Of a stretch of DNA of 64,000 bases, positions 26,131 through 60,631 are shown one piece after another. The notes under the pieces are model-generated. The model was given only the letters and a program-made list of their open reading frames with translations. It ran no database searches and had not been told where the DNA came from. The stretch spans positions 66,621 to 130,620 of the forward strand of contig JACKFI010000002.1 in NCBI GenBank assembly GCA_020632555.1, in the 5' to 3' direction. Made by a program: the position numbers and the translations under genes. Source of the DNA: Candidatus Omnitrophota bacterium (GTDB lineage: Bacteria > Omnitrophota > Gorgyraeia > Zapsychrales > JANLHA01). Within the stretch, counting starts at the first letter, position 1. The number at the start of each line of letters is the position of its first letter.

Positions 26131-26213
26131 ACGTGTGACTAATATAAACCACTTGTTTATGAAAGTCAAATCTCACTATTCCAACATACTGTCAAGAATC
26201 TTGCTGACTTTCA

Positions 26214-37246: not shown

Positions 37247-37434
37247 AAGTAAAGTTAACCGTCAATCCCCGACATACAGAAAAGCTTCTCAAGCAGACGC
37301 TTAAAGAACGCTCCCCCAGTTGGCGGGTCCAAAATACAAAAATTTTAAGAATTGAGAACGTTTTGATGAATAAACTATTATGGCAAGAACACAGAACAAT
37401 AATACCATTTATCGGGGAGAAAGGCAAAAATTTC

Positions 37435-38622
37435 TTACCCCCATTTGCCATCCGGGCGGGGTGAAATGAGGACCTTAAAATAAGCGGTTAAATACAGCCC
37501 AAAAGCGATCATCCATAAAATCTGGCTGATGCCAATGGCCACTGCAAACCACGCACCGGGCAACAGCGGCGAACCAACGCGAAGCATAGCGCTAAGAATA
37601 ATAGGCAGAAACATCAGTGGTAAAATAGCCGGCGGCTCGGCTATGCTGCGACCGGTATGTCCCCACGCCACACGCGCCATCATGCCCAGCGTAAAAGCAC
37701 CGATGCCACCAGCCGTCCACGCATGCAAAGCCGCATCATCTGGATAATTATTTAAAACCGAAAAAATTTTCAACAAGAATCCCAAAATAATAAACCCATA
37801 TCCCATGAAAAGAATCCACAAAAGAGGTTTTTTCCAAATTCCCGCCGTGTACCAACCCGCCAAACGCAAGCTGTGTACAATAACTAATAAAGCACAAATT
37901 ATCGCGACCACCATCGGCCAAGAACAAAACACATCAATGATCGAAAACGCTAATATGAGAACCAAGCTGGCCATATCCAAAAATCGGCTATTGCGCAAAG
38001 TCACCGCATAACCCACGCCGCGTTCAATAAAAAAAGGCATCACCCGTCGGCCAACTGTCAAAATCAAACTCACAATCATATACAGCGAAAAGCGCAAAGC
38101 TTTTCGCTCGATGATCAAATTCGCGTGCAACAACGCGGCATAAAACACACCGCCGCTGAGCAAAAGCATGATCAATTTGGAGAATACGGCGGATTGTTTC
38201 CACTGCTTGACCGCGGCAATCGGCCGAATCACGGCAAAAGATAAAAAAACCAAAAAAGCACTGTCGCACACAATCAAGGGCCACAACGGAAAAGACGCCG
38301 GCATAAACGCCAAACCCCGCGCCAGCGCCCAAAGTATAAATAAAATCAACAGTGGTGTACTACTTAATGTCGGCTGGCCTGTCCAATTCATCACCGCGGT
38401 TAATAAGAATCCAGCAACCACCGCCATTGTAAAACCAAAAATCATTTCATGCCCATGCCAGACAGTCAACGGCATCGCGACAAAAATGTTTGCGGCTAAA
38501 ACATAAAAGATCAGCCAAAACACCATCGACACGACGGTATAAACCGCCGCGCCCAAAAAGAAAATGCGAAATCCCGTCTGTAAAACAACCGGGCACTGTG
38601 TCTTTGAATGATTCATAAACAA
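37435..38622 (-). CDS. nnrS: NnrS family membrane protein
   Basis: TGFRIFFLGAAVY...WHGHEMIFGF near the N-terminus and ~12 TM segments, as in NnrS. Confidence 0.8.
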   Translation of the reverse strand: MFMNHSKTQCPVVLQTGFRIFFLGAAVYTVVSMVFWLIFYVLAANIFVAMPLTVWHGHEMIFGFTMAVVAGFLLTAVMNWTGQPTLSSTPLLILFILWALARGLAFMPASFPLWPLIVCDSAFLVFLSFAVIRPIAAVKQWKQSAVFSKLIMLLLSGGVFYAALLHANLIIERKALRFSLYMIVSLILTVGRRVMPFFIERGVGYAVTLRNSRFLDMASLVLILAFSIIDVFCSWPMVVAIICALLVIVHSLRLAGWYTAGIWKKPLLWILFMGYGFIILGFLLKIFSVLNNYPDDAALHAWTAGGIGAFTLGMMARVAWGHTGRSIAEPPAILPLMFLPIILSAMLRVGSPLLPGAWFAVAIGISQILWMIAFGLYLTAYFKVLISPRPDGKWG

Positions 38623-38670
38623 CTCACTTCACAATTATATTTCTAAGGGCACCACCCTCAAAGCCATCGT

Positions 38671-39801
38671 TTAATCTGCAATAAAATTAAGATAATTATC
38701 TTGATTGATCGTTTCAAAAAAAGCATCTGGATATGTTTGTTGCCATTGTTTGGGAGACTTGGCTTGAGTTTGACCCCACTTAAATTCATAGGCAAATAAT
38801 TTCCCTTCCCGCTCTTCAATCAAATCAATTTCTTGCTTCTCCCAAGTCCGCCAAAAGTAAACATTCGCGTAAAGACTTTGATACGCACGTTTTTTAAGCC
38901 GTTCCATAAAAAGAAAATTCTCCCACAACTCCCCAACATCATTACGCAGTCGCAAAGAATTAAAGTTTGAAATCACAGCATTACGAATACCGACATCATA
39001 AAAATAATATTTTCCTTTTTTGGCTATTTCTGATCGAAGATTACGGCTAAACCCCCGGACAGAATAAATAACAAATGTCTTTTCAAAAAGATCCAAGTAT
39101 CGACCAACCGTTTTATGATCAATCCCAACCTGTTGACCTAACTCAGCGAGGGACACTTCCTTCCCAATTTGAAAAGCTAACAATCGCAATAAATCCATGA
39201 TAAGCTTAGCACTTTTAACACGGTCAAATTCCAGAATATCTTTCAGTAAATAAGCCTGTGCAAGCTCCTCGAGCCAACGAATTTTCTCCGCAGAAACATC
39301 CGTTGCCACAATCTCCGGATAACCACCAAAAATCAAAGAATGTTCCAATCGATTTTTTAATTCATACGGATTATAAAGTTTTTGCAACTCCAACTGAGCC
39401 ACCGGATATAAAGTTAACGTCACCTTGCGACCTGTTAACGGTTCACCAATTTGTCCGGCTAGATCAAAAGACGAAGAACCTGTGGCAATCACTTTAAGAT
39501 TGGGAATATTATCAATCAAAAGCTTGATCGTTTGGCCGATGTTTTGGATTTTCTGCGCCTCATCGATAACGAGCAAATCATAACCTTGAGCATATTCTTT
39601 AAGCGCCGCAAGATCTTGCGAACTTAAAATTGACTGAATACTAATATTATCGCCCGTATCAAATTTGTATTTACCTTGATAAGTGGCCAAAAAGTTTTTA
39701 ACAAGAGTCGTTTTGCCCGCCTGCCGCGGACCATAAATAATTAAGGCTTTATTAGGCTTAAGATACAATGCGAGATTTTGATAAAAACGAGGAATTTGCA
39801 T
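38671..39801 (-). CDS. AAA+ ATPase, AAA_14 + DUF4143 family (copy 3)
   Basis: Walker A IYGPRQAGKTTL, Walker B LVIDEAQ. The C-terminal half parallels copy 1 (FVIYSVRGFSRNLRSEI... versus YVNYRVYSFSRNLGNEL...). Confidence 0.8.
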   Translation of the reverse strand: MQIPRFYQNLALYLKPNKALIIYGPRQAGKTTLVKNFLATYQGKYKFDTGDNISIQSILSSQDLAALKEYAQGYDLLVIDEAQKIQNIGQTIKLLIDNIPNLKVIATGSSSFDLAGQIGEPLTGRKVTLTLYPVAQLELQKLYNPYELKNRLEHSLIFGGYPEIVATDVSAEKIRWLEELAQAYLLKDILEFDRVKSAKLIMDLLRLLAFQIGKEVSLAELGQQVGIDHKTVGRYLDLFEKTFVIYSVRGFSRNLRSEIAKKGKYYFYDVGIRNAVISNFNSLRLRNDVGELWENFLFMERLKKRAYQSLYANVYFWRTWEKQEIDLIEEREGKLFAYEFKWGQTQAKSPKQWQQTYPDAFFETINQDNYLNFIAD

Positions 39802-39926
39802 GAGTAAATAATATCATAATCCCTAAAATAAGTCAATTTTGGGGAGAGGCACTCCCTGAAATTGTACGATTATAGGGAATTAAGATCCCTGAAATTGGCA
39901 AATTCTAGGAATATGCGAAAAGGAGG

Positions 39927-40373
39927 CTAGGCAATTGTAATATTCTCTCCAACTTTCAAAATCCCCTCCCGAATCACTTTGGCATACATTCCATGCCGGT
40001 TGAGCGCGTCGGTTTTTAATTGCGGTGAAATCGCGTCCATCACGTAACAAGGTTTGCGCACTTTGGAAATTTCTAAAACAACACCGCCAGACAGTTTCAG
40101 CTGCGTCCCCAAAGGCAAACTGTTGACATTCAAATTCTCGACAGTTAAATTCTCACCGGCATCTCCCGGCCCCAAAGTGTAACCAACCTCATTGAGTTCT
40201 TGCAATTTTTCAATATCCTGCAAACACACCGCTTGAATCGGCGAATTGTGTTTTTCATGATTATGCCCATCACCGACTAAACCGTTAACCGTCAACTCAA
40301 CAAAAGGTATCGGTCGTTTGGGAATGCCACCATCAGAAATATTAATCGAAACAATACGCGCAACATCTTTCAT
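39927..40373 (-). CDS. MOSC domain protein
   Basis: GLVGDGHNH...QAVCLQDIE...GDAGENLTVENL...LEISKVRKPCYVMD matches the MOSC beta-barrel with its conserved Cys. Confidence 0.75.
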   Translation of the reverse strand: MKDVARIVSINISDGGIPKRPIPFVELTVNGLVGDGHNHEKHNSPIQAVCLQDIEKLQELNEVGYTLGPGDAGENLTVENLNVNSLPLGTQLKLSGGVVLEISKVRKPCYVMDAISPQLKTDALNRHGMYAKVIREGILKVGENITIA

Positions 40374-40391
40374 TTGACTCTTTCCTAATCT

Positions 40392-41987
40392 TTAACATTG
40401 AATGCCGGAATTTTTCCGATCATAATAATACCAATTCAAAACCAAACAAATCACATAATAGACGGTAAATCCATACAGTGCGTATTCGGCATGCCCAGCC
40501 TTAATCTGCTGACCAAAAACAATAGGAATAATAAAAGCGCCGTAAGCGGCAATCGCCGAAATCCAGCCGAGAACCGGACCCGCCTGCTCTTTGGGAAAAA
40601 TATACGCGACGCTGCGAAAAGTCGAACCATTGCCGACACCCGTCGCTAAAAACAAAATCATAAACAGCGCGAAAAACGGCCACCAATACACTTCCGGCGT
40701 TCCCAACGATTTGGCTTTCACAATAAAATACGCCACCCCCAAAGCAGCCACCACCTGAGCCAACGTACTCCACGCTGTCACCTTCGACCCACTATTAATT
40801 TTATCAGCCAACCAGCCGCCGACGGGGCGAATCAAAGCGCCAACCATTGGACCAATAAAAGCCCACACCATTGGATTGGGCGCATTGGGATTAACCACGC
40901 CACCGGGCAAATATCCAAAAACATCCTGAATCAATTTCGGAAAGGACGCGCAATACCCAATATACGAACCAAAAGTCATCACGTACAAAATGGTCATCAC
41001 CCAGTTGTGATGATTCTTAAAAATCACAAATTGCCGTTGCAAGTTTTGCTTAACCGCTTGCGGCGAAAATGTGTTCATCAAAAACAAAGCGGTTAAAATC
41101 GTTACCGGTAAAACAATCCATATATTCAATTTTAAAACAGTCAACAAATAAGCCCCAATTCCAGCGGCAATCAAACCAAACAACAACAATAAAGCAATTT
41201 TGGCAAACTCCACCAAAGAATTCCCTAATTCCGGCGTCGCCGTTTTTAAATTATTCATCCCGAAAAAAGCAGCTAGCGCAGAAATCAGTAAAAACGGCAC
41301 CCACACCCAACCGGCGTTTTGAATAAATACCAGCGTCCCGACGGCCTTAGCACCATCAGCTTCCACCAAAGGCAAACCGGCACCGGCAAAACTTCCAAAT
41401 AATCCAAACGTGATCACAACCGGAATCACAAACTGCATGACACTGACACCCAAATTCCCCAAGCCCGCGTTTAAACCCAGCGCTGTTCCTTGCATACGCT
41501 TGGGAAAGAAGAACGAAATATTAGACATCGACGAAGCAAAATTACCGCCGCCAAACCCTGACAAAACCGCCAAAATCGCGAACACCGCATAAGACGTTGT
41601 TATATTTTGCAAAGCCATCCCCGCGCCAACCGCCGGAATCAACAATAATAAGGTTGAAAGAAAAATAACATTTCGTCCGCCGCCAATGGCAATCAAAAAA
41701 GAATTGGGAATACGCAGCGTCGCCCCCGCCAAACCGGCAATCGCCGGCAAAGTCCATAATAATTCATTATAAATTTTTAGATCTTCCGGCGACTGATGCG
41801 GCACCCCGAGAGTAAATCCCAGCTTTTTCATCTGTACGATAATCATGCCCCACATAATCCAAATCGAGAAGGATTGCAAAAGCGATGATATTGATATCCA
41901 CAGATTGCGAAAAGCCACACCTTTACCGCTCTGATCCCAGAACTTCATGTCTTCAACATTCCAGCTTTGAATATTAATCTGTGTCAT
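40392..41987 (-). CDS. narK: MFS nitrate/nitrite transporter (NarK/NNP family, long form)
   Basis: N-terminal WNVEDMKFWDQSGKGVAFRNLWISISSLL, and two NNP-type glycine/asparagine signatures (GFGGGNFASS and ATGVGNGSTF). Confidence 0.8.
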   Translation of the reverse strand: MTQINIQSWNVEDMKFWDQSGKGVAFRNLWISISSLLQSFSIWIMWGMIIVQMKKLGFTLGVPHQSPEDLKIYNELLWTLPAIAGLAGATLRIPNSFLIAIGGGRNVIFLSTLLLLIPAVGAGMALQNITTSYAVFAILAVLSGFGGGNFASSMSNISFFFPKRMQGTALGLNAGLGNLGVSVMQFVIPVVITFGLFGSFAGAGLPLVEADGAKAVGTLVFIQNAGWVWVPFLLISALAAFFGMNNLKTATPELGNSLVEFAKIALLLLFGLIAAGIGAYLLTVLKLNIWIVLPVTILTALFLMNTFSPQAVKQNLQRQFVIFKNHHNWVMTILYVMTFGSYIGYCASFPKLIQDVFGYLPGGVVNPNAPNPMVWAFIGPMVGALIRPVGGWLADKINSGSKVTAWSTLAQVVAALGVAYFIVKAKSLGTPEVYWWPFFALFMILFLATGVGNGSTFRSVAYIFPKEQAGPVLGWISAIAAYGAFIIPIVFGQQIKAGHAEYALYGFTVYYVICLVLNWYYYDRKNSGIQC

Positions 41988-42024
41988 TTTTGGTCCTTAA
42001 TCTTAAGTGTTTTTTAAATTTAAC

Positions 42025-43512
42025 TCAGTGATCAATCAGCTGAGCTGACTCTGGATGTTTGGCTCGCATCATGTGAACAATCACAGTATGCATCCACCAT
42101 AAACATCCCGCCGATAAAACAAACATCAACATCCAACAGCTGGTCCACAAGCCGGTGCCTTTGAGCAAATACCCAAAAAGAATCGGACAAACAAAACCGC
42201 CCAAGCCGCCTAAAACCCCGACCATACCGCCAACTACGCCCACTTCTTCCGGAAAATAATCCGCGATATGTTTGTACACCGCGGCTTTCCCGATGCCCCA
42301 GACCGCGCCCAACACAAAAACTAAAAACGCGAAAATCCAAACATTCGCCTGAAAGAAAATACGTGTGACCCCTTTAGCTAATAATTCTTTTTGCCCAACT
42401 TTTTGTCCGACTTTGACCACTGGTTCCTGCCAAATTTCTTTCGACGGAAACACTAAAAGTTTTTCATCAAAGTTTTTGAGCTGCGCGCTTTTTTCAATCA
42501 AAATGTATGATTTATTGCCCACCACAATGCTATGCGCGTCCACCGCGGTCACAATACCCGGCTTTTGCGCCATAATGCCTTGCCCGGGAGAATAAATATC
42601 CATCTTGGGAATAATCAACATAAAGCTGACCACCACCGATAAACCCAAAACCCAATACATCACTTTGCGCGCGCCCCAATGGTCCGACATCCATCCGCCG
42701 ACGGCACGAATCACGCCCGACGGAAAACTAAAGCAAGACGCCAAAATCCCGGCGGTAACCAAAGGCATATAATACGCGCTGACGAAATACGGCACCAACC
42801 ATTGTGAAAAAGCGACAAAACAACCGAACACCAGAAAATAATACAAACCCAAACGCCACACGCGAATATCTTCTAAAGGCCGCAGCATAGCACCCCAACT
42901 TTTGCCGCTGGACAAAGGTTTTTTATTAACCGAGAAAATAAACATAATCGCGCCCATGACCACCAACATCGCCGCGTAATACTTAGGCAACATTCGCCAA
43001 CCTTGCGGATACGCCCCGTGAGCCGTAAACATATTTAAAAGTTTTGGCGCGCACAATGTGGTCAAAGCGGCGCCCGCATTGCCAGCTCCAAAAATCCCCA
43101 AAGCTGTACCCTGAAATTTTTTCGGATACCACACCGATGAGAATGCAATGCCGATGGAAAAACTCACCCCCACTAATCCAAAACCAAAACTGCACAAAGC
43201 AAATTCAAAGAAATTGTTGGCCCTCGACAAAAAATACATTGGAATCGCGCACAATATTAACAAAGTTCCAAAAACCGGCTTGCCGCCGAATTTATCGGTC
43301 AGCATGCCAGCAGGCAAACGAAACACAGAACCAGTCAAAACCGGAATGCCCAACAACCAACCAATCTCGACAGGTCCCCAATCAAAAATTTGATTGGTTG
43401 CTAAAAACGTCACCAAGACACCATTAAGCATCCACGCCGCAAAACAAATGGTGAAGGCTAAAGTATTAAGGAAGAGAACTCGATGAGAAGCTGCCGTCGC
43501 TTGTTCTTGCAT
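42025..43512 (-). CDS. narK: MFS nitrate/nitrite transporter (NarK/NNP family) with a ~90-aa soluble insertion
   Basis: FRLPAGMLTDKFGGKP, GIFGAGNAGAALT, GVLGGLGGFVCP. The inserted hydrophilic segment is PGQGIMAQKPGIVTAVDAHSIVVGNKSYILIEK... Confidence 0.75.
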   Translation of the reverse strand: MQEQATAASHRVLFLNTLAFTICFAAWMLNGVLVTFLATNQIFDWGPVEIGWLLGIPVLTGSVFRLPAGMLTDKFGGKPVFGTLLILCAIPMYFLSRANNFFEFALCSFGFGLVGVSFSIGIAFSSVWYPKKFQGTALGIFGAGNAGAALTTLCAPKLLNMFTAHGAYPQGWRMLPKYYAAMLVVMGAIMFIFSVNKKPLSSGKSWGAMLRPLEDIRVWRLGLYYFLVFGCFVAFSQWLVPYFVSAYYMPLVTAGILASCFSFPSGVIRAVGGWMSDHWGARKVMYWVLGLSVVVSFMLIIPKMDIYSPGQGIMAQKPGIVTAVDAHSIVVGNKSYILIEKSAQLKNFDEKLLVFPSKEIWQEPVVKVGQKVGQKELLAKGVTRIFFQANVWIFAFLVFVLGAVWGIGKAAVYKHIADYFPEEVGVVGGMVGVLGGLGGFVCPILFGYLLKGTGLWTSCWMLMFVLSAGCLWWMHTVIVHMMRAKHPESAQLIDH

Positions 43513-43534
43513 AAAAAATCCTGAAAATGATTAG

Positions 43535-43807
43535 TTAAGAAGTTTTGTTTTGGTAAGTCTCGCTGCGGCCATCCGCGGCACCTTTTAAAAATTTTATTTT
43601 TGTCAGATAAACACTTACGCCGCACGCTAATAAAGCCGCGGCACTTAAAATCACGCTGGGCAGCAAATGGTCATATTCTTTTTCAAAATACATTTCCAGC
43701 GCCGAGATTAAGACCCAAATCTGCAAAAACACCGCGCCCAAACTGATCACTAAAGCCACCCCCTCGACCATATTGACAAATTCTTCCTTTTTATTCGAAA
43801 ATCTCAT
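43535..43807 (-). CDS. Small 2-TM membrane protein, function unknown
   Basis: 90 aa with two hydrophobic helices. The ATGA overlap with the upstream Rieske gene suggests translational coupling. Confidence 0.5.
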   Translation of the reverse strand: MRFSNKKEEFVNMVEGVALVISLGAVFLQIWVLISALEMYFEKEYDHLLPSVILSAAALLACGVSVYLTKIKFLKGAADGRSETYQNKTS

Positions 43808-44343
43808 ACCAAATCTCCTCGTTCCATACCAACAAAATAAACTCCGTCGGATCGCAGCTCAATTTTTAATTTGGGCAAAGCGCGTTCCGGCGGCCCGTAC
43901 AAAACATTGCCTGTGGTGCCATCAAAAGCACCTTTGTGACAGGGACAAAAAAGGATTTTTTCTGTTTTCTTCCAAATCACCGGACATTGCAAATGTGTAC
44001 ACTTTTGCCCAAACGCAACAAACTCTTCTGGTCCCAAACGCAGCAAAATCGCCGGCTCGCGAAGATGCGGAATTTCAAAAACATAGGCTTCGCCAATTTG
44101 CAAGTCTTCCTGATCAACAATTTTCATTGGTGCGTAATGATGTATCTGCTGAGATTTAACCCACGATTTAACCCACACGCCAGCTGTTCCCGCAAAAAAA
44201 CCCAGAGACACCAAACTCAAATAACGAATAAAATCCCGGCGAGAAACATGAGTATCCCGATTCTGATCCAGCGGAAAATCTTCCGCCCACTTGGGAACTT
44301 GCCGATATTGATCCTTTAATCGTTTTTCAATCGGATCTGTCAT
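43804..44343 (-). CDS. Rieske [2Fe-2S] protein with Tat-like/TM N-terminus
   Basis: CTHLQCPV...CPCHKGAF Rieske boxes. N-terminal SRRDFIRYLSLVSLGFFAGTAG resembles a twin-arginine signal or anchor. Confidence 0.85.
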   Translation of the reverse strand: MTDPIEKRLKDQYRQVPKWAEDFPLDQNRDTHVSRRDFIRYLSLVSLGFFAGTAGVWVKSWVKSQQIHHYAPMKIVDQEDLQIGEAYVFEIPHLREPAILLRLGPEEFVAFGQKCTHLQCPVIWKKTEKILFCPCHKGAFDGTTGNVLYGPPERALPKLKIELRSDGVYFVGMERGDLV

Positions 44344-44435
44344 AACCTGTCCTTTTCTTTAAATCCGTACTGTCAAAAGTCTTTCTTCACTGTGTCGCTA
44401 CCAACCCTGTCATCCCTAAATTCTTTGCCAACCCT

Positions 44436-44590
44436 ATCATCCCCGAGTAGCTTCTATCGGGGATCCATTCATAGTGTCTTTGCGAACCCCGTAGGGGCGC
44501 GACAATCTTGTTGATCTGAGATTGCTTCACTTCGTTCGCAATGACACGACAGGTATGTCTTTATCAATAAATAGGAGCTGTCCCACCTTT
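44436..44590. repeat. Composite palindromic repeat, copy A (short hairpin + ~70-nt long palindrome + conserved tail)
   Basis: atccccga-gtagcttcta-tcggggat hairpin, then gtctttgcgaac...gttcgcaatgac long imperfect palindrome, then ...aataaataggagctgtcccacc. About 97% identical to copy B at a 162-bp period. Confidence 0.9.
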
Positions 44591-44597
44591 CTACTCT

Positions 44598-44752
44598 GTC
44601 ATCCCCGAGTAGCTTCTGTCGGGGATCCATTCAGAGTGTCTTTGCGAGCCCCGTAGGGGCGCGGCAATCTTGTTGATCTGAGATTGCTTCACTTCGTTCG
44701 CAATGACACGACAGGTATGTCTTTATCAATAAATAGGAGCTGTCCCACCTTT
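44598..44752. repeat. Composite palindromic repeat, copy B
   Basis: Same structure as copy A, with about 4 mismatches by eye. It ends at the stop codon of the 4Fe-4S subunit gene. Confidence 0.9.
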
Positions 44753-45363
44753 TAAATCACCCACGGTTGGCTGTCTTCAATGGTGGTGCTGATAAAATTC
44801 ACAATATCCATCTCCACCGGTTTTTGCTCAGTATCCACCATCAAGTGAACCTTGGTTCTAATGGTTTGACGGCCAAAAATAAAATGATTATTCGCTTTAT
44901 TCTTGCGTTGGGATTCAATCACCGACTTGGGCCCAAAAAAAATCGCTTCCGATGGACAAACGGTGGCGCACATCGGTTTTAAGCCAATGGCCGTCCGGTC
45001 ATAACACATATCGCATTTATTCATTTGCGCGCGCTCTGGATAAATTTTGGGAACACCAAACGGACAGGCAATTTGACAATTTGAACAACCGATACACCGC
45101 GGCTTTAACGACGATTGCACCACGCCATCATCGGTGCGTTTGATCGCATCTGCCGGACATACCGCGGCACACGCCGGATCATCACAATGCATGCACAAGG
45201 TCGGTCCGGTCTTAACGGAATCCGGGCGATTCAAAGGTTCCAAATGAATCATCGCCACCCCCCGATGAGTGCCGCATTCAGCGCACGCCGCTTCGCAGGC
45301 GCGACAACCAATGCAGCGCTGTGGGTCAATAAATAAATCGTTTTCTTCCAACCATGTGCTCAT
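44752..45363 (-). CDS. 4Fe-4S ferredoxin-type subunit (four-cluster, DmsB/NarH-lite type)
   Basis: Four Cys groups: [39 protein letters not shown] and CDMCYDR...[13 protein letters not shown] overlap with the upstream catalytic-subunit gene. Confidence 0.85.
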
Positions 45364-47549
45364 AAATTCTTCTCGACTACCTTTTCAATTCGTACCGCGC
45401 TCATTTTGAATTCCGGAATTTTTGAAACCGGATCCAACGCCCGCTGTGTCAGACGATTAATGGATTGTTTGCCCGCCCAATGATAAGGAACAAAAACCGT
45501 GTCAGGCCGAATGGTCTTGACCACCCGCGCTTTAAGCTGTACAGAATCTCGACGCGACGTGATCTTAACCAAATCGCCTTCGGCAATGCCATATTTCTCG
45601 GCCAAAAGCGGATGAATTTCCAGATACGGTTTAGGACATTGATCATTTAAAAACCCAATACGGCGGGTTTGTGTGCCCGAAAGATAATGATAAATCACCC
45701 GCCCGGTTGTTAAATAAATGGGATACTCTTCATTAATCGCATCCGCTGAAGGTTTATACGTAACCACATTAAAACGCGCCTTCCCGTCGGGATAATAAAA
45801 CTTCCCGCCTTCAAACAAACGTGGTGTTCCCGGATGCCCAATCTCAGGGCACGGCCAAAACACACCCATTTCTTTTTCAATACGGTCATAGGTGATACCA
45901 TAATAATCCGCGGTTCCACCCTTGGAAGCCACGCGCAATTCTTCAAACATCGATTCGGAATCCTTAAAATCAAAATATTTTTCTTTGCCCAACCGTCGGG
46001 CGATCTCCAAAAGAATTTCCCAATCAACTTTCGCTTCTGCTGGAGGATTAACAGACTTTTGCAGCCGAATCACCCGCCCCTCAGCGGAGGTGGACGTTCC
46101 CTCATCTTCTTCATGCAAAGAACCGGGCAAAATCACATCCGCGTAACGGGCTGTCTCGCTCATAAAAAAATCAATATTGGCGTAAAACTCTAACTTTTCT
46201 AAAGCCTCGCGGGTAAAACCACTATCCGGCAAACTGACCAGCGGATTAAAACAAATGCTCAACAACCCCCTGATTTTGCCGGCGTGAATTTCATTCATAA
46301 TTTCCTGCGCGGACAATCCTTTGCCGGGCAAATCTTTCTCGTCGATGCCCCAAACTTTTGAAATATACTGACGATGCTCGGGATTGGTGATGTCGCGGTT
46401 GCCGGGCAGTTGATCGCATTTGTGCCCGTGCTCACGGCCGCCCTGCCCATTGCCCTGACCGGTGATGGTCGCGTAACCACAGCCGACTTTGCCGATTCTT
46501 CCCGTCGCTAAAACCATATTGATGCACGAAAGCACATTATCCACACCCTTGGTGTGATGTTCAATCCCGCGAGCATGAAGAAGAAAACTCCGCTTGGCCT
46601 TGCCCCACCACAGCGCGGCGGTCTTAATGCTTTGCGCCGGAACTCCGGTCACCTTCTCACATTCATCGACGGTATAACCTGCCACCGTTTTTTTGACTTC
46701 TTCAAAACCGACCGTATGCGCATCAATAAACGCTTGGTCAATATCACCTGCCTGAATCATCAAATTTAAAAGAGTATTAAACAAAAAGGAATCTGTTCCC
46801 GGGCGAACCGGTAAAATCAAATCCGCGGTACGCGCAATAGGGGTGATACGCGGATCCACCACAATCAATTTGGCTCCACGAGTATCCCGAGCCTTCCAAA
46901 TGTAATCGGTGGTGATGGGCGCGCATTCGCTAACATTGGTGCCGGCGCATAAAATCACATCAGTTTCCAAAATATCCGCCCACGAATTGGCGGCACGATC
47001 AATGCCAAACGCTTTTTTATTGCCCGCGCCCGCCGAGACCATACACAGCCGGCCGTTATAATCCAAGTTCGCGGTTTGAAGAGCAACTCGAGCAAATTTC
47101 CCGACCAGATAAGACTTTTCATTGGACAACGAGACGCCAGACAACATCGCGAAACTGTCTTTGCCGTATTGGCTTTGAATACGCTCAATCTCGGAGGTAA
47201 CCCGACTATAAGCCGCCTCCCACGAAACCGGTTCATAACCTTTGCCACGGCGATTTTCCAACGGATGCAACAGCCGGTCAGGATGACTGCCCTGCATGTA
47301 ACGTTTAACTCCTTTGGGACACAGCTTGCCTTTATTAAAGGGAAAGGCTTCCCACGGGTCAAAACCAATAATGGCATTGTCTTTGACTTTTAAAATAATG
47401 CCGCATTGCTGACCGCAAAAACAACAATGAGTTTTGACCCGACGATCCGGCTGACTGTCGGTTTGATCCCAGCCGCCGGGGGGAACATGCTTGGAATGCG
47501 GACCAAATTGTTCAATAATCAATTCTTCCGAGATCGGTAATTTTGCCAT
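45360..47549 (-). CDS. Molybdopterin oxidoreductase catalytic subunit (729 aa, Nas/Nap/Fdh-size class); probable nitrate reductase by context
   Basis: N-terminal FeS motif [10 protein letters not shown]...x27...CPKG, and C-terminal [39 protein letters not shown]. It has no Tat signal of its own. Confidence 0.75.
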
Positions 47550-47566
47550 AAAACTCCTTGCGCGGC

Positions 47567-48619
47567 TTATTGGCCGCTGATATCAAATTTTCCCTTTAAA
47601 CGCTGGTGTTGCGTGGTCATCAAAAGTTGTCGTCGAGCTGCTGGACTTAGATCTTGGACGGAAATCTTTTGATCATCTGGTTCAAATTGAAAACCCAATT
47701 CCCGCAAAATCGTTTTCACATCACCTTTCTGAACTTGACTAGTAAAACCTTCACCTGTCTTCGGACAAATGGCTAATGAGCCTTCTTGCTTTTCCTTAAT
47801 ATACAGTTGGGCGCCCATTTGCGAAGCTCGTTGAAAAATATGAAAGAATTTTCCAAACGGCAAATACACCAAGAAGGAAACAACTGTCCAACAATGCACC
47901 GTCGATAAAATCCGATAATGCTGGCCGCCCAAATAATGCGTGCTAAAGGTCAAACACAAACCCGAAAGGGCCACCGCCATCAGAATCAACAACGGCAGAA
48001 TATCATTAGCAAATGTTTGTGTGGTCATTTCTCCCGGGTGAATCAAGCGCCGCGCGAAAGCCATGCTGCAGCCGACGATAATCATCACAGAACAGAAATT
48101 TAGCGAATTAAAAAACAGATAGCCAATAAAACCGTAAGGATCAAAAATCATGGTGGCAAAGCCAAAGACGTGCAATTGATACATATACGCATCGCCTGTC
48201 GGATGAGCAAAATGCAACCAGCCAAAAACCAATGGGAAGGTGATCGCAAAACCCATCACGCAGCCCCATGCCAAAAGAAAATGCATCACCCAGCGATAGG
48301 CACTGCGCCGGCCAATGAATTTTTGTAAAACCATATTTTCAAAAACCGCCTTAAAAACTAAAGCCGTATTTGCAAAAAAGTTTTTATTAAACACCAAGGC
48401 TAAACTGCGCTGCCACAAGACGCGCGTCGGCGGGCGGGACAACCAAACGGAGTAACGATACACACTGCCAAAAACCGCGAACACAGTCGCAATTAAGTAG
48501 GGAACCAAGGCGGCATCAAAATAAATCAATTTACGGGAACCCAAAACCACCAAGGCTGACAAAATCGCTACGCCCAAAAGGCCCCGTAAGATTCCAGCTG
48601 GATATAATCGCATTAACAC
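47567..48619 (-). CDS. NarI/HdrE/DsrM-like membrane subunit (putative dihaem b) with a soluble C-terminal extension
   Basis: About 6 TM segments, conserved His residues in the helices, and [13 protein letters not shown] (the PFxKxxH motif of the nitrate-reductase-gamma family). GTG start lies 9 nt after AGGAGA. Confidence 0.6.
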
Positions 48620-48710
48620 GAAATCATTTCTCCTAAAAAAGTATGAGTTAATTATCTCACAGAATTTTTTTCATTAAAGTGAAAAAGCTTTTCTTATAAA
48701 ACACATCCCT

Positions 48711-50267
48711 TTACCAATCTACGGGGAAATAATCTTTAAGGAATTTGCCGCACCAATGTTTGCCGGTTAAGATGCCGTGAAAAAACGGGTCACACACCCG
48801 CGCGGCTCCGTCGACAATATCCAAAGGCGGCTGAAAGTCGTGCATGTTTTGTTTGCGTTGCGACAGCACCAGCGGATCTTCATCAGTCACCCAACCGGTA
48901 TCCACTGCGTTCATAAAAATACCATATTTCGCCAAATCGCTGGCGGAGGTGTGCGTCAACATATTCAAGGCCGCCTTGGCCATATTGGTGTGCGGATGAC
49001 GATCGGTCTTGGTAAAACGATGAAACTTGCCTTCCATCGCCGAGACATTGACGATATGCTTTTGGCCGGTATTGTCCCGCTTCATCATCACGGATAATTT
49101 ATTGCACAAAACAAAAGGCGCGATCGCATTGACCAATTGCAACTCAATCATCTCGGCAGTGGGAATATCGCCCAAACGCAAACGCCAGCTGTTCATTTCC
49201 CGCAAATCGACTTGCTGCAAATCGGCATCCAATTGACCTTGGGGAAAAATTGTTTCTGCTGACAAAGCCGTATCGTGTGTGTAGGGAATTTGTGATAATT
49301 TGGCCGACGAGCTCAACCCAATCCCAATCATTTCACCATTCCAACCCAGAGCCGGCATCGTTTCATCAGCCCGCGAATCCGAAGCATTGGGCAATAACTT
49401 GGTTTTGCATTCTTCAAAAGGCCGCAATAGCGCCTGCACAGACGCCGACAATTCAGAGAACTTTAACATTTCATTGGTTAGCAAATGACTATAAAACCCC
49501 GGCGGGCGCCGAACCGTTTGCGCGGCATTATTAATCAACAGATCCAAACGATCATATTTTTGTTCAACGTAGCGGCAAAAAAGCTCGACGCTGGGCGTAT
49601 GCCGCAAGTCCAAACCATAAATATGCAAACGATCTTTCCAATCAGAAAAATCTTTTTCGCGCTCATACCTCAAGGCGCTGTCAACGGGGAATCTCGTCGT
49701 TGCAATCACGGTGGCCCCGGCGCGCAACATCATCAAGGCGGATTGATAACCGATCTTTAAGCGCGATCCGGTAATCAAAGCCACTTGTCCTTTTAAAGAC
49801 GCGGTTTGAAAACGCTTGGCATAATTAAGCTCCGCGCACGCTGGGCACATCGCATCATAAAAGAAATGCAGGCGGGTAAATTCCGCTTTACAAACATAAC
49901 AAGCCCGCGGATTGACCAAGGTCATCTCTTGCGAAGCTTCCTCGGCGGCGACGTGAGTGATTTGCAAAGGGGCAACAAAAACCGCATCCTTGCGCGCACT
50001 GCGTATGCCGGTTAAAGCGCGAGCATTGCGCTCATGATCGTCAATCTTTTGCCGTTTTAACCGATCGCGATCACGATGACGTTTGCGCAATTCGTATTTA
50101 TCCGGCCGGGAAATCTCACCCGCCGCCCGCAACAGGGCAACTTTCTGTTGGCTGGACAAATGCGCCAACTCAACGCTATTTTCAGCCAGATAGCGCAAAG
50201 TCAAAATACAATTCTGGACATCTTCCGGAGAAACTTTAGGCAATGCTATCCGCTCTGTGTTGTGCAT
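48711..50267 (-). CDS. SDR-family oxidoreductase with N-terminal extension and Cys4 zinc-ribbon
   Basis: [30 protein letters not shown] (TGxxxxxG), LINNAAQ (NNAA), and upstream CYVCK...x17...CPAC. Confidence 0.7.
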
Positions 50268-50275
50268 ATCACCCT

Positions 50276-51649
50276 TCAGGTAAGAATCACTTTATCCGCG
50301 TCAAACTCATTGACTTTTTCTCGCAATAAAGCAAAAGGACCCGGATCGTTTTCTAATTCATCGGAAAACGTAACCCATCCCGACTGGGAACCACCGTGAA
50401 TTTCCGCAACTGGTTGGCGCTTATTATCGAACAATTTTTTAACCTCTACATCAATGGTCTGCTCGGGCAAACACATTTCATACTTCCCGCCGACTTTAAT
50501 CAAATTCCGTGCCAAAATCCTAGCTGACTTTTTAGAAACATCGTACTCGTCTACTAACCCAGTAAACCGATACGCACTGTATTGCGAGCAACTGCTATCG
50601 TATTCCTGACCGGCTTGACCGGGATTGCCGTGCAAAAATCCGCTGATAAACCCACGATTCGACGTCGCAAAAATATCGCGCAAATGCTGGGGATTAAATG
50701 GTCGGCCTGCCGCCAAATCATCAATCGCCCGACGATAAGCCCGGGTAATCATCGACAAATAATAAACCGATTTGGATCGCCCCTCGACTTTAAACGAACA
50801 GACCCCGGCATCGCGCAACTGCGCTAAAGAATCAATCGCGCACAAATCTTTGGAGTTCATCAAATAACTGCCGTTTTCATCTTCGTCTAATTCAAACAAT
50901 TCATCCGGCCGCTCGGACTCCTTAATATAATATTGCCCGTCGGGCGCGGTGTATTTTGTTTCCGGCGCTGCGTCGAGACTTTTAGCTTTTTCATCCTGAC
51001 AACACGCCGAAGGTTCTTCGCCTTTTTTATAAACTTTATACTCCCAGCGGCACGAATTGGTGCACGCACCTTGATTACCGTCGCGGCTGCTCAAATAATT
51101 GGAAATCAAACAGCGCCCTGAATACGCCATACAAATCGCGCCGTGCACAAAAGATTCCAATTCCATCTCTGGACAAGCCTCATGAATCTCCTGCATTTCT
51201 TTAATACTAATCTCGCGCGAGACAATAATCCGTTTAGCGCCATTTTTCTGCCAAAATTTGACTGCCGCATAATTGATGGTATTGGCTTGCACAGAAATAT
51301 GAATGGTCTCCTCAGGAAAGCTTTCCATCATCAACATAATCAGCCCCGGGTCAGACATAATCCACGCGTCCGGCCGACACAGCGCCAAAAGCTCAGCAAT
51401 GTATTTGGCAAACGACGGCAGTTTGTGATTATGAGGAAAAATATTAGCGGTTACGTAAGCTTTCTTACCTCGATCGTGGACATAGTTGACCGCTTGCGCG
51501 ACTTGCTCAAAACTTTTAAACCCATTCTCCCTGGAGCGCAATGAAAATCGGGGAATACCCAAATACACCGCGTCGGCGCCAAAAGCGCAAGCAAATTGCA
51601 CTTTTTGAAAATCCCCGCCGGGCATTAAAAGTTCTGGTTTAACCATCAA
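50276..51649 (-). CDS. yegQ: Peptidase U32 family protein, YegQ/TrhP-like (tRNA hydroxylation-associated)
   Basis: [28 protein letters not shown]...[10 protein letters not shown]...[16 protein letters not shown]...[19 protein letters not shown]...[13 protein letters not shown] is collinear with E. coli YegQ as I recall it. Confidence 0.8.
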
Positions 51650-60630: not shown

Positions 60631-60631
60631 T

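Follow-up and report, generated by a model that had tools for sequence, protein, structure and literature searches.

In a 64,000-nucleotide stretch of DNA from a Candidatus Omnitrophota bacterium (the window), a set of five genes probably encodes a hybrid enzyme, a membrane-bound quinol:nitrate oxidoreductase of five subunits in which a small catalytic subunit of assimilatory type is joined to a membrane electron-transfer chain with a Rieske protein. Its active site would be cytoplasmic, its Rieske domain periplasmic, and its role dissimilatory. The gene set is a conserved five-gene operon and not a chance neighbourhood. The operon is widespread, uncharacterised, and not annotated as a nitrate reductase; a survey of the literature found no description of such an architecture and no experiment on the enzyme.

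On the minus strand of the window, the operon consists of the genes for a membrane protein of 350 aa (47567-48619), a molybdopterin (Mo) subunit of 729 aa (45360-47549; Pfam Molybdop_Fe4S4, Molybdopterin, and Molydop_binding), an FeS protein of 203 aa (44752-45363), a Rieske protein of 179 aa (43804-44343), and a 2-TM protein of 90 aa (43535-43807), with two tandem repeat units (44431-44752) between the FeS and Rieske genes. The FeS gene overlaps the Mo gene by 4 nt (ATGA), and the 2-TM gene is translationally coupled to the Rieske gene by a 4-nt overlap of the same kind. These genes are followed, also on the minus strand, by those for a NarK-family MFS transporter of 495 aa (42025-43512; MFS_1), a NarK/NarU-type transporter of 531 aa (40392-41987), and a MOSC-domain protein of 148 aa (39927-40373; Pfam MOSC). 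This order, both couplings, and the repeat units had been described in an earlier sequence-only reading of the DNA, and every ORF was found where that reading had placed it. NnrS, which it put just beyond the MOSC gene, is indeed there (395 aa, 37435-38622, minus strand; Pfam NnrS, 315 bits) but is not adjacent, as an AAA_14/DUF4143 ATPase gene (38671-39801) lies between the two. NnrS, a nitrosative-stress/denitrification-associated membrane protein, is a neighbour of the operon rather than a subunit.

The two repeat units, each of ~160 nt and 96% identical to one another, fill the 409-bp gap between the FeS and Rieske genes. The repeat has a strong predicted fold (z = -4.5) and no match in Rfam, and at least 120 metagenome contigs contain its 28-nt core, with unrelated flanks around it. 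In the orthologous operon of the nearest relative, also from Omnitrophota (L005), the repeat is absent and the gap is 22 bp; in most loci, it is 10-100 bp. The tandem repeat is an insertion and lies outside the conserved module.

Relatives of the membrane subunit are encoded in at least 565 species genomes, and the co-occurrence counts rest on the best 80 loci among them. The membrane, Mo, FeS, and Rieske genes lie together in 69 of these 80 loci; the complete loci come from about ten phyla, among them Omnitrophota, Bacteroidota, and Acidobacteriota, so that the co-occurrence of the Rieske and NarI-like genes with the Mo gene, suggested earlier as a check, is borne out. Among the 11 incomplete loci, eight end at a contig end, two are from Armatimonadota and are truncated on the flank that holds the FeS and Rieske genes in their relatives, and one (L075) is the only true exception. 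Nearly all complete loci have the order membrane-Mo-FeS-Rieske; the two complete ones from Armatimonadota have their FeS and Rieske genes upstream of that for the membrane subunit.

The Mo subunit has the N-terminal Cys4 [4Fe-4S] motif noted in the earlier reading and a conserved N-terminal extension (MAKLP...FGPH). Its best score to a curated NCBIfam family was that for NasC (847 bits, under the cutoff of 1100), compared to 600 bits for Fdh-alpha, 291 for NapA, 166 for arsenite_ox_L (cutoff 359), and 52 for NarG (cutoff 1084). Alignment with E. coli NapA and FdhF identified C169-M170, T363, and R372 in the Mo subunit, a Cys-Met/Thr/Arg signature that is common to NapA, whereas FdhF differs by Sec-His and Arg333. 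The Nap/Nas residues (Cys-Met, Thr, and the Arg in GGREHG) were invariant in all 16 module sequences examined, and the Fdh signature residues (the Sec/Cys-His pair and Arg333) were absent. In an NJ tree, the module clade was nested among representatives with the same signature, including NAD(P)H-Nas fusions and one Nas-MFS fusion. A Tat motif was seen in none of the 72 Mo orthologues, in keeping with the small, Nas/Nap-size catalytic subunit lacking a Tat signal that had been proposed. These results place the Mo subunit in the Nas/NarB nitrate-reductase clade by sequence, and not with the formate dehydrogenases, a clustering that would have spoken against the earlier reading; Cys169 is the putative Mo ligand.

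For the membrane subunit, ~six TM helices are predicted, followed by a soluble C-terminal part of ~90 aa, which makes it larger than NarI; in some orthologues, this C-terminal domain is zinc-ribbon-like. The window copy has no Pfam match, and its NCBIfam matches to TcuB, QmoC, and NarI are weak (NarI, 20 bits against a cutoff of 105.55). Orthologues match Pfam Nitrate_red_gam below the threshold, and the database names vary from 'MFS transporter' (NCBI) to 'nitrate reductase gamma subunit' (JGI). Profile alignment (hhalign) with E. coli NarI gave an E value of 2.8e-4 and aligned H242 and H260 with the NarI haem ligands H187 and H205, as well as a PF..H motif, and NarI was the only meaningful PDB match by sequence. 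H113, H242, and H260 were invariant in all 76 membrane-subunit sequences, and H136 was found in 75 of the 76. The AF2 model (pLDDT 84) gave only noise in a Foldseek search of the PDB, with NarI not among the matches. By the positive-inside rule, the C-terminal domain and the large loops, which carry positive charge, are predicted to be cytoplasmic. The sequence comparisons identify the membrane subunit as a distant relative of NarI in which four histidines are conserved, in line with the NarI-like protein first noticed, and suggest a putative di-haem b, NarI-like fold.

The FeS subunit has matches to Pfam Fer4_11 and related families and four Cys motifs. Its best NCBIfam matches, DmsB, HybA, and FdnH, are all far under their cutoffs, it has no signal peptide, and none of 52 FeS orthologues has a Tat motif. 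It is predicted to be a four-cluster [4Fe-4S] electron-transfer subunit, translationally coupled to the catalytic gene.

For the Rieske protein (Pfam Rieske), a conserved N-tail (P.W..DFP) precedes the SRRDFIR motif at residues 34-40, one hydrophobic TM helix, and the Rieske domain (CTHLQC...CPCHKG). The Tat-type character assigned to it earlier extends to its orthologues: an S/T-R-R-x-F motif followed by a TM helix was found in 55/55, with the RR motif and W19 invariant across every phylum sampled. The closest solved relatives are the Rieske protein of the Thermus bc complex, which comes first, that of b6f, and AioB. From the hydropathy of the protein, the Rieske domain is predicted to be periplasmic and the N-tail cytoplasmic. 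The 2-TM protein of the window scores weakly against DUF6755 (19 bits, Pfam), whereas its orthologues in other phyla exceed the Pfam cutoff (33-95 bits). This 90-aa DUF6755-family protein carries a Q-I-W-x-L motif, and in 53 of 55 loci the next gene after that for the Rieske protein is an ORF with the QxW motif.

The nitrate context noticed in the window recurs across loci. NarK-type genes were found within 10 kb of the module in 57 of the 69 complete loci, and genes for Moco biosynthesis, an Rrf2 regulator, RIC/ScdA, NirK, and NnrS also recur near it. The 495-aa MFS protein scores 163 bits, under the cutoff, against the NarK family TIGR00886 (NCBIfam), and its orthologues (55-71% identity) adjoin the module in many loci. 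The 531-aa transporter, with NCBIfam scores of 308 bits for NarU and 271 bits for TIGR00886, is also kept beside the module. The MOSC gene, an accessory one, has an orthologue (71% identical) next to the module in L005, from Omnitrophota, and NnrS adjoins the module in L002, L003, and L005. A tblastn search with E. coli NarJ found none. A canonical NarG lies 5-8 kb from the module in L003, L039, L043, L060, and L072, and the module is therefore not simply the sole nitrate reductase available. In L003, a NarC-like cytochrome c gene, with homologues in three further loci, is located directly upstream of this canonical narG and just downstream of the module.

We suggest that the two NarK-family transporters would import nitrate and that the Nas/NarB-type subunit would convert it to nitrite at a cytoplasmic Mo-bisPGD site, with Cys169 as the putative ligand. 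Electrons would come from the quinol pool, probably from menaquinol because of the host phyla. Quinol would be oxidised at the periplasmic face of the NarI-like di-haem b subunit, with release of protons outside. The two haems would carry the electrons across the membrane to the ferredoxin subunit, whose four [4Fe-4S] clusters would pass them on to the [4Fe-4S] cluster at the N-terminus of the catalytic subunit and from there to molybdenum. The Rieske protein would be inserted by Tat, with its N-tail in the cytoplasm and its [2Fe-2S] domain in the periplasm beside the distal haem, where it may either be part of the quinol-oxidising site or form a periplasmic electron branch. A linear, NarGHI-like path needs no Rieske centre, so that the most unusual of the subunits has no essential function in this scheme. 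The DUF6755 2-TM protein would be a fifth, structural subunit. We infer the single complex from synteny only, and the electron path, quinol donor, topology, and physiological role are likewise inferred. The sequence-only reading had left a choice between a quinol-linked nitrate reductase whose catalytic subunit is small and an enzyme of different specificity; the clade of the Mo subunit, the co-occurrence in 69/80 loci, and the nitrate context favour the former.

The role of the complex would be respiration or redox balancing at low oxygen. The same complex and chemistry could also supply nitrite for ammonium assimilation in those aerobic heterotrophs that have no Nas partner dependent on ferredoxin or NADH. 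The catalytic subunit does belong to the Nas/NarB clade, many hosts are aerobic heterotrophs of soil and water (Flavobacterium, Chitinophaga, Niastella, and Acidobacteriaceae), and six Flavobacterium loci have a gene for a uroporphyrinogen methyltransferase (CobA/CysG-like) in the vicinity. Such an assimilatory role is unlikely, however. Within 10 kb of the 80 loci and in the window, tblastn with E. coli NirB and NirD found a single weak NirB match (48 bits, L073), and clustering of the neighbours revealed no conserved family of nitrite-reductase size. Paired transporters of the NarK1/NarK2 type are a typical feature of respiratory nar clusters. The recurring NirK, NnrS, Rrf2, and RIC genes relate to denitrification and NO stress, and the Omnitrophota relative has an anaerobic ribonucleotide reductase (NrdD) and a NarL-type two-component system near the module. 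In Apibacter, a preprint labelled the cluster that corresponds to locus L009 as NarGH, with a Rieske protein replacing NarI, proposed nitrate respiration, and noted that nitrite-detoxification genes are lacking. Flavobacterium columnare, in which the module is putatively present, reportedly has a 'soluble cytoplasmic' nitrate reductase and no other, yet nitrate improves its anaerobic growth. These neighbours, the scarcity of NirBD near the module, and the two reports together suggest a dissimilatory role rather than nitrogen assimilation.

The other main question is on which side of the membrane nitrate is reduced. In an arsenite-oxidase-like, periplasmic arrangement, the Mo and FeS subunits would hitch-hike on the Tat signal of the Rieske protein, and electrons would pass from the membrane subunit through the Rieske/FeS chain to nitrate outside. 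The twin-arginine motif is indeed on the Rieske protein alone and universally conserved there, AioB scores nearly equal to the bc-type Rieske proteins among the solved relatives, and AioA is exported by hitch-hiking on AioB. A Tat-type Rieske protein with a Nas-related Mo subunit is exactly the arrangement of arsenite oxidase, whose large subunit is exported. The origin of AioA is reported to lie inside the NasC/NasA lineage (PMC7331816). Nevertheless, this topology is improbable. A periplasmic enzyme would need no nitrate importers, which argues against it given the NarK linkage, and a catalytic domain related to that of the module sits fused to the N-terminus of an MFS transporter (protein P0245) whose MFS half is 36% identical to the 495-aa protein. 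Both putative haem-ligand pairs are kept, which implies that electrons would cross the membrane; their retention would otherwise make no sense, and such transfer is needless with donor and acceptor both outside. The large conserved soluble parts of the membrane subunit are on the predicted cytoplasmic side, the strongly conserved Rieske N-tail before the RR motif would stay in the cytoplasm, and, to our knowledge, all known NarI/HdrE/DsrM/QmoC-type subunits serve cytoplasmic partners. We favour a cytoplasmic active site with the Rieske domain alone outside, as suggested by the Mo and FeS subunits without Tat motifs, the cytoplasmic loops, the four histidines, the NarK linkage, and the Mo-domain-MFS fusion. 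Although the topology had been considered undecidable from sequence, it can be argued from the Tat distribution, the loops, and NarK.

A different substrate, such as chlorate, selenate, arsenite, or formate, with the nitrate genes as mere neighbours, is very improbable: substrate specificity in the superfamily is hard to read from sequence, the NasC score is under its curated cutoff, and formate dehydrogenases are nearest in sequence among the solved structures (HDCR FdhF, 487 bits, vs D. desulfuricans NapA, 343 bits), but the Fdh signature is absent while the Nap/Nas residues are invariant, the Cys4 [4Fe-4S] motif and putative Cys ligand set the subunit apart from AioA, and the NarK linkage is conserved across phyla. 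It is equally hard to credit that a membrane-Mo-FeS enzyme is merely accompanied by a separate Rieske/DUF6755 pair, as the repeat-filled gap of the window and the different arrangement of the FeS-Rieske and membrane-Mo pairs in Armatimonadota (L052 and L062) might suggest, since the Rieske gene stays beside the FeS gene even there, the gap is short in most loci and in the nearest relative, and all 69 complete loci carry the Rieske gene.

Compared with known systems, the proposed enzyme shares with E. coli NarGHI the logic of Mo-bisPGD, a four-cluster FeS protein, and a di-haem b membrane subunit with aligned haem ligands, and, with the proposed topology, the cytoplasm-facing site and quinol oxidation at the outer face (redox loop), along with narK linkage. 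However, NarG has ~1246 aa and an Asp ligand, whereas the Mo subunit of the module has 729 aa, a putative Cys ligand, and belongs to the Nas clade; NarH has 512 aa compared to 203 aa; and the module has no detected NarJ, a membrane subunit of 350 aa with ~six TM helices and a C-terminal soluble domain, and two extra subunits, the Rieske and DUF6755 proteins.

The catalytic subunit resembles NasC, NarB, and NasA in clade, size, cofactor motifs, the Cys-Met/Thr/Arg signature, and the lack of a Tat signal. Known Nas enzymes are soluble, receive electrons from ferredoxin/flavodoxin or an NAD(P)H flavoprotein, and are encoded beside assimilatory nitrite reductase. Wells et al. 2020 state that the canonical four-cluster and membrane-anchor subunits accompany none of the members of the Fdh/Nas/Aio/Nap clade (PMC7331816). 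In contrast, the module has both, and E. coli-type NirBD was not detected nearby.

In Thermus thermophilus NarCGHI, a cytoplasm-facing nitrate reductase, NarI has an added periplasmic redox subunit, which is proposed to branch electrons to periplasmic nitrite/NO reductases, replacing complex III (PMC7694296). The module likewise has an extra, predicted periplasmic redox subunit, but this is a di-haem cytochrome c in NarCGHI and a Rieske protein here, and the catalytic core is NarGH there and Nas-type here. The pNar nitrate reductase genes of haloarchaea and Methanoperedens are clustered with those for a Rieske protein and a b-type cytochrome (PMC4683180), as in the module, whereas pNar has an outward-facing, NarG-type catalytic subunit with the Tat signal on NarG and a cytochrome b of the bc1/b6f type rather than a NarI-like one.

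AioAB also combines a Nas-related Mo subunit without a signal peptide and a Rieske subunit with a Tat signal, but AioA is periplasmic, oxidises its substrate, and contains a [3Fe-4S] cluster and a Mo without a ligand from the protein, and AioAB lacks the four-cluster and membrane subunits that the module has. Finally, the module shares with bc1/b6f a Tat-inserted, N-terminally anchored Rieske protein and a membrane protein that is, putatively here, di-haem b. Conversely, its haem b subunit is NarI-like and not a cytochrome b, no cytochrome c1 or f is present, and the inner end of its haem chain would lead to the FeS/Mo enzyme instead of a Qi site.

The operon lies on the minus strand and begins with the gene for a membrane protein of 350 aa (47567-48619), which has no Pfam domain and shows weak NCBIfam similarity to TcuB, QmoC, and NarI. 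It is followed by the genes for a 729-aa Mo subunit (45360-47549), in which the Pfam domains Molybdop_Fe4S4, Molybdopterin, and Molydop_binding are found, a 203-aa FeS protein with four Cys motifs (44752-45363), which overlaps the Mo gene in an ATGA, a 179-aa Rieske protein (43804-44343), in which SRRDFIR immediately precedes a hydrophobic helix, and a 90-aa 2-TM protein (43535-43807), whose gene overlaps the Rieske gene by four bases. Two NarK-family MFS transporters of 495 and 531 aa (42025-43512 and 40392-41987, respectively) and a MOSC protein of 148 aa (39927-40373) are encoded next on the same strand, and every ORF named by the sequence-only reading was found on the minus strand. NnrS, which that reading placed just beyond MOSC, is indeed nearby (37435-38622), but the gene for an AAA_14/DUF4143 ATPase (38671-39801) intervenes. 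The operon contains no cytochrome c gene, the remainder of the 64,000-nt window contains no other nitrogen-cycle gene, and an Rfam scan of positions 37000-51000 (E <= 1) gave no match, Moco riboswitch included.

The ATPase gene that splits the MOSC-NnrS neighbourhood is one of three paralogous AAA_14/DUF4143 genes in the window. Direct repeats of 139-140 nt with 95-98% identity (24961-25099/26214-26352 and 25340-25479/26348-26487) accompany the first two (24946-26169 and 26536-27816), and all three genes may be mobile or recently duplicated. Between them and NnrS lies an ORF of 2827 aa (28763-37246), whose Pfam matches are limited to an ABC1 atypical-kinase domain close to the C-terminus and, weakly, M48 peptidase, and which contains 51-nt tandem repeats at 36255-36479. 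A further direct repeat of 300 nt, 98% identical (60632-60931 and 62345-62644), flanks the ORF region 60611-62326.

The repeat units described earlier between the FeS and Rieske genes were also confirmed: two tandem units of ~160 nt (44431-44752), 96% identical, occupy the 409-bp gap. They are absent from the orthologous operon of the nearest Omnitrophota relative (locus L005). One of the units is predicted to fold strongly (-57.4 kcal/mol, z = -4.5) and has no Rfam match. Exact copies of its 28-nt hairpin core, GTCATTGCGAACGAAGTGAAGCAATCTC, are present in at least 120 metagenome contigs, where the flanks are unrelated (median identity 38%); the core therefore looks like a widespread, short palindromic module inside different repeats. 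The ~160-nt repeat is an insertion specific to the window genome and lies outside the conserved module.

In the public records, the module is unannotated or wrongly annotated. The five proteins from the 2-TM protein to the membrane protein are identical to GenBank MCB9757067-MCB9757071, from a Candidatus Omnitrophota metagenome-assembled genome. These entries are labelled, in order, 'hypothetical protein', 'ubiquinol-cytochrome c reductase iron-sulfur subunit', '4Fe-4S dicluster domain-containing protein', 'molybdopterin oxidoreductase family protein', and 'MFS transporter', and none of the five bears the label 'nitrate reductase'. Close relatives of the membrane protein are labelled 'nitrate reductase gamma subunit' by JGI.

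For the Mo subunit, the best curated model was NCBIfam NasC, with 847 bits (equivalog cutoff 1100), followed by Fdh-alpha (600 bits) and haloarchaeal NasA (369 bits). The scores for the NapA (291 bits against a cutoff of 904), arsenite_ox_L (165.6 against 359), and narG (52.3 against 1084) models were far lower, and those for narG and NapA rule out a NarG-type or Nap-type enzyme. The nearest solved structures by sequence were formate dehydrogenases (487 bits) and then D. desulfuricans NapA (343 bits), with no Nas-type structure among the matches.

In an alignment of the Mo subunit with E. coli NapA and E. coli FdhF, the Mo-ligand position is occupied by Cys169, followed by Met as in NapA, where FdhF has Sec-His (U140-H141). 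Thr363 stands at the position of FdhF Arg333, and Arg372, in the sequence GGREHG, is the counterpart of the NapA Arg. The Cys169-Met/Thr363/Arg372 combination was common to all 16 module sequences compared (the window protein and 15 orthologues). Besides Cys169, the protein contains a Cys4 motif ([10 protein letters not shown]...CPKG).

Relatives were sought among 1.84 billion representatives, and the next ones outside the module were at most 52% identical to the Mo subunit. In a neighbour-joining tree of 50 representatives and the module orthologues, calculated without bootstrap and with E. coli NapA and FdhF as the sole named references, the module formed a tight clade inside a group in which every member has the C-M/T/R signature. 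The Nap-like group and the group with the C-H/R signature of formate dehydrogenases were both separate from it. The surrounding group includes fusions with a pyridine-nucleotide oxidoreductase domain, an arrangement known from NAD(P)H-dependent Nas enzymes, and a 1158-aa protein (P0245) that combines a Nas-type catalytic domain with a C-terminal MFS transporter. The MFS part of P0245 is 36% identical to the 495-aa MFS of the window (E 1e-55), and the fusion ties this MFS subtype to nitrate reductases. A formate dehydrogenase is thus ruled out by the active-site residues (C-M and Thr) together with the tree; the clustering with formate dehydrogenases that would have told against the earlier proposal was not seen. 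The position outside the C-H/R clade and the C-M/T/R residues argue for a nitrate reductase that descends from the Nas lineage, in line with the first of the two options raised by the sequence-only reading.

With the membrane protein as query, 3004 homologues were retrieved, and a scan of one genome per species found a relative encoded in at least 565 genomes. The window proteins were mapped by tblastn onto the best 80 loci, and the membrane, Mo, FeS, and Rieske genes occurred together in 69 of them; the association of the Rieske and NarI-like genes with the catalytic gene, on which the sequence-only reading depended, is therefore retained in related genomes. The gene content of a complex iron-sulfur molybdoenzyme, i.e., Mo-bisPGD catalytic, four-cluster, and membrane-anchor genes encoded together, is present, with synteny kept in these 69 loci. 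The gene order was that of the window in nearly all complete loci, except for two from Armatimonadota (L052 and L062), which have the FeS and Rieske genes upstream of the membrane gene. Of the 11 incomplete loci, eight run into a contig end, two (both from Armatimonadota) are truncated on the flank that bears the FeS and Rieske genes in their sister loci, and one (L075), in which unrelated small genes break up the operon, is a genuine exception.

Judged by their record titles, the hosts belong to Omnitrophota, Planctomycetota, Bacteroidota (~36 loci), Acidobacteriota (~24 loci), Verrucomicrobiota, Ignavibacteria, Armatimonadota, Actinomycetota, Chloroflexota, and Sumerlaeota; the Bacteroidota include Algoriphagus, Chitinophaga, Niastella, Apibacter, and Flavobacterium, in which the module is common. 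Flavobacterium chungangensis carries two copies of the entire module on different contigs (L041 and L044). Identities to the window proteins were 58-87% for Mo, 47-87% for FeS, 39-78% for membrane, and 32-70% for Rieske proteins, and 57 of the 69 complete loci had NarK-type genes at a distance of no more than 10 kb. Since the four core genes co-occur and both the DUF6755 ORF that follows the Rieske gene and the NarK genes recur, the module is taken to consist of five genes in the company of nitrate transporters. These results indicate that the finding is real, conserved, and widespread.

Recurrent neighbours were defined by clustering the ORFs from all loci, with family names assigned by eye from representative sequences and, for L005 and L003, confirmed by Pfam. 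Genes for Moco biosynthesis (MoaA, MoeA, MobA, MoeB, MoaE, and MoaC/B) were recurrent, and the module was accompanied by an Rrf2-family regulator in 13 loci, RIC/ScdA in 12, and NnrS and CobA in six each. NirK-like copper nitrite reductases were found in four Flavobacterium loci, where the representative bears a C-terminal cytochrome c domain, and in L005. In L005, the order is an Rrf2 regulator, anaerobic ribonucleotide reductase with its activase, the NirK-like protein, NnrS, the module, NarK, MOSC, and a PAS histidine kinase paired with a response regulator of the LuxR type.

In five loci (L003, L039, L043, L060, and L072), a canonical NarG gene (46% identical to E. coli NarG) lies 5-8 kb from the module, so that some genomes hold both types of nitrate reductase side by side; in L003 (16406-20873), narG is preceded by a gene for a membrane-anchored cytochrome c, as in Thermus narC. 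With E. coli NirB and NirD as the sole tblastn queries for assimilatory nitrite reductases, a single weak NirB match was obtained in the 80 loci (L073, 48 bits) and none in the window, and neighbour clustering of the loci revealed no conserved family of nitrite-reductase size. No NarI match was found in the loci by tblastn (E < 1e-6), nor any match to E. coli NarJ in the window or the 80 loci, the latter being a weak negative for a protein as short and divergent as NarJ. Overall, the context is one of denitrification and NO stress, not of assimilation.

For the membrane subunit, hydropathy indicates about six TM helices. A positively charged loop at 50-113 (10 Lys/Arg) and the last 95 residues of the protein (14 Lys/Arg) lie on the same side of the membrane, opposite a 31-residue loop without Lys/Arg, which places both termini and the large soluble parts in the cytoplasm by the positive-inside rule. 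H113, H242, and H260 are invariant in 76 homologues, and H136 is found in 75 of the 76. With the family profile, E. coli NarI was the sole meaningful sequence match in the PDB (E 0.016), and hhalign against NarI (E 2.8e-4) aligned H242 and H260 with NarI H187 and H205, and PFGKFFH with PFSRLIH. In the NarGHI structure, H187 and H205 are the helix-5 ligands of the distal and proximal haems.

The similarity is nevertheless remote, since the narI model of NCBIfam scored 20 bits against a cutoff of 105.55, and the Pfam model Nitrate_red_gam scored 16.6-19.3 bits against a threshold of 22.9 in three of the four orthologues tested, while the window protein had no Pfam match. Other remote similarity was limited to QmoC and TcuB, and the Pfam cytochrome b families (Cytochrom_B_N/C, bc1/b6f fold) did not match. 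An AF2 model (pLDDT 84) contains a small beta element in the outer loop at 133-160 and an alpha/beta C-terminal domain; some orthologues have a CxxC...CxxC arrangement in this domain, of which the window protein retains C285 only. The Foldseek search of this model against the PDB returned GPCR-type noise only (best E 0.05, NarI not among the matches) and is uninformative either way. The membrane subunit thus appears to be a remote NarI/HdrE-type, putative di-haem b protein outside the NarI family proper. The 203-aa FeS subunit likewise scored low against NCBIfam narH (44.5 bits, cutoff 524).

For the Rieske subunit, (S/T)RRxF followed by a hydrophobic helix was present in all 55 orthologues and conforms to the Tat consensus, like the signals of AioB and of bc-complex Rieske proteins. 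A P.W..DFP motif is conserved N-terminal of the twin arginines. The n-regions of ordinary Tat signals are not conserved, and this difference suggests that the N-tail may remain in the cytoplasm and bind something there. The cluster boxes are CTHLxC and CPCHxGxF, and the nearest solved relatives are the Rieske proteins of the Thermus bc complex (68.7 bits), b6f (66.6 bits), and AioB (62.8 bits), indicating a Rieske protein of the respiratory type and not of the dioxygenase or NirD type; the arsenite_ox_S model scored 37.6 bits against a cutoff of 95.65. A cytoplasmic, NirD-type Rieske protein is ruled out by the twin-arginine motif, the TM helix, and the bc/Aio-type similarity. Gly and Phe occupy the two positions at which Ser and Tyr form hydrogen bonds to the cluster in bc1 Rieske proteins. 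From established mutagenesis work, the Gly/Phe pair may be expected to lower the potential, as is seen in menaquinol-oxidising complexes.

In 53 of 55 loci, the Rieske gene is followed by a small 2-TM ORF that contains a Q-x-W-x-L motif. Its positional orthologues from other phyla scored 33-95 bits for DUF6755, above the Pfam gathering threshold of 27, whereas the window protein scored 19.2 bits. The QxW motif and 2-TM layout that it shares with the orthologues identify it as a probable divergent DUF6755 member. In a Verrucomicrobium MAG (L070:14314-15846), the DUF6755 ORF reads without a stop into a NarK-type MFS gene. This ORF is possibly a natural fusion of the small subunit with a nitrate transporter and, if so, would suggest a physical association of the transporter with the reductase.

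Given these subunits, we lean towards a redox-loop enzyme like NarGHI that reduces nitrate inside the cell. Quinol would be oxidised at the outer face, electrons would traverse the membrane via the two b haems to the four [4Fe-4S] clusters, the N-terminal cluster, and molybdenum, and nitrate brought in by NarK would be reduced in the cytoplasm. The redox-loop model gives no reason for the universal retention of a periplasmic Rieske centre. This centre could belong to the quinol site and act as the first acceptor of electrons, or it could lead electrons out to periplasmic acceptors, the role proposed for Thermus NarC.

A further possibility is a Qo-type, electron-bifurcating site of quinol oxidation formed by the Rieske and NarI-like subunits together. 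One electron per quinol would pass via the two b haems and the FeS chain to cytoplasmic nitrate, and the other via the Rieske centre to a periplasmic cytochrome c, NirK, Nor, or a high-affinity oxidase. A single machine would thereby combine a nitrate reductase and a complex III substitute. Electrons would be shared 1:1 by the cytoplasmic and the periplasmic steps of denitrification, in keeping with the 2 + 1 + 1 electrons consumed on the way from nitrate via nitrite and NO to half an N2O. Such an enzyme would also be a present-day representative of the Nas-plus-Rieske pairing that may have given rise to arsenite oxidase. We regard bifurcation as unlikely.

Both the redox loop and bifurcation place nitrate reduction in the cytoplasm, and the sequence features lead us to position the Mo and FeS subunits there, with only the Rieske domain outside, because the Tat motif is found on the Rieske protein only (0 of 72 Mo and 0 of 52 FeS orthologues), the membrane subunit is oriented as described, both haem sites are retained, NarK is linked, and the fusion of the Nas-type domain with an MFS transporter in P0245 implies a cytoplasmic catalytic domain. 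The topology had been left open earlier, the other choice being that the Mo and FeS subunits are exported together with the Rieske protein and hitch-hike on its Tat signal, as in arsenite oxidase; the Tat-type Rieske partner speaks for such export, and the features just listed make it quite improbable. Reverse running as a nitrite oxidoreductase that feeds the Rieske centre is thermodynamically implausible from the potential of the nitrate/nitrite couple.

The usual scheme of prokaryotic nitrate reductases has three types (Nar, Nap, and Nas), and the module would be a fourth architecture, present in at least 565 species genomes that include abundant Acidobacteriota and Bacteroidota of soil and water. 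Gene surveys of the nitrogen cycle probably score its catalytic gene as assimilatory nasA/narB and, if the enzyme is dissimilatory, they would misjudge the potential for nitrate respiration. Two families would also gain a function from the module, namely Pfam DUF6755 and that of the membrane protein, which has no Pfam model.

In Thermus, NarI bears a periplasmic cytochrome c subunit, NarC, proposed as an electron path to nitrite and NO reductases that replaces complex III (PMC7694296), and nitrate reductase genes of haloarchaea and Methanoperedens are clustered with Rieske/cytochrome b genes (PMC4683180). A preprint on Apibacter describes a NAR pathway with the subunits NarG and NarH, in which narI is missing and a Rieske protein is found instead, and contains no nitrate-reduction experiment (10.1101/2020.09.30.321786). 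Our locus from Apibacter mensalis (L009) agrees with it in the three NarK genes and the Moco genes next to them, and the preprint cluster is clearly the module; its authors overlooked the membrane gene, which carries the NCBI name 'MFS transporter'. For Flavobacterium columnare, a knock-out study of denitrification genes was reportedly published by Abdelhamed et al. in J Appl Microbiol around 2021. According to a genome paper, a strain of this species encodes a 'soluble cytoplasmic nitrate reductase' and grows better anaerobically with nitrate (PMC5395568); if the species has the module, this would account for the nitrate-aided growth despite that annotation. Full-text literature searches revealed no description of the module architecture and, as far as found, the module is uncharacterised.

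Compared with the known systems, the module is a predicted complex iron-sulfur molybdoenzyme for nitrate, in which a Nas-clade catalytic subunit is combined with a Nar-like membrane chain, a Tat-type Rieske protein, and DUF6755. NarG is ~1200 aa long with an Asp ligand to Mo, and NarH is ~500 aa; in contrast, the catalytic subunit here has 729 aa with Cys169 at the ligand position, and the FeS subunit has 203 aa. The module resembles Nas/NarB in its clade, Cys ligand, and nitrate-type active site, and it nests with NAD(P)H-Nas fusions. However, Nas and NarB are soluble, take electrons from ferredoxin/flavodoxin or an NAD(P)H-flavoprotein, and have an assimilatory nitrite reductase nearby, whereas the partners in the module are the four-cluster FeS, membrane, and Rieske proteins.

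In Nap, the Tat signal is on NapA, accompanied by NapB/NapC/NapD, while the Mo subunit of the module has no Tat motif and the operon no cytochrome c gene. Formate dehydrogenases have a Sec/Cys-His pair and an Arg (FdhF U140-H141 and R333), where the window protein has C-M and Thr. Rieske/cytochrome b complexes have a bc1/b6f cytochrome b beside the Rieske gene, a domain that the membrane subunit here does not have. AioA carries a [3Fe-4S] cluster and Mo without a protein ligand, unlike the Cys4 motif and Cys169 of the module; conversely, AioAB shares a Rieske subunit with a twin-arginine signal, and AioB is among the best PDB matches of the module Rieske protein.

Members of the Fdh/Nas/Aio/Nap clade were stated never to occur with canonical subunits of the four-cluster or membrane-anchor kind (Wells et al., 2020; PMC7331816), a generalisation that does not hold for the module. 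Since AioA probably arose from within NasC/NasA (PMC7331816), the Nas-plus-Rieske pairing of the module is of interest for the origin of arsenite oxidase.
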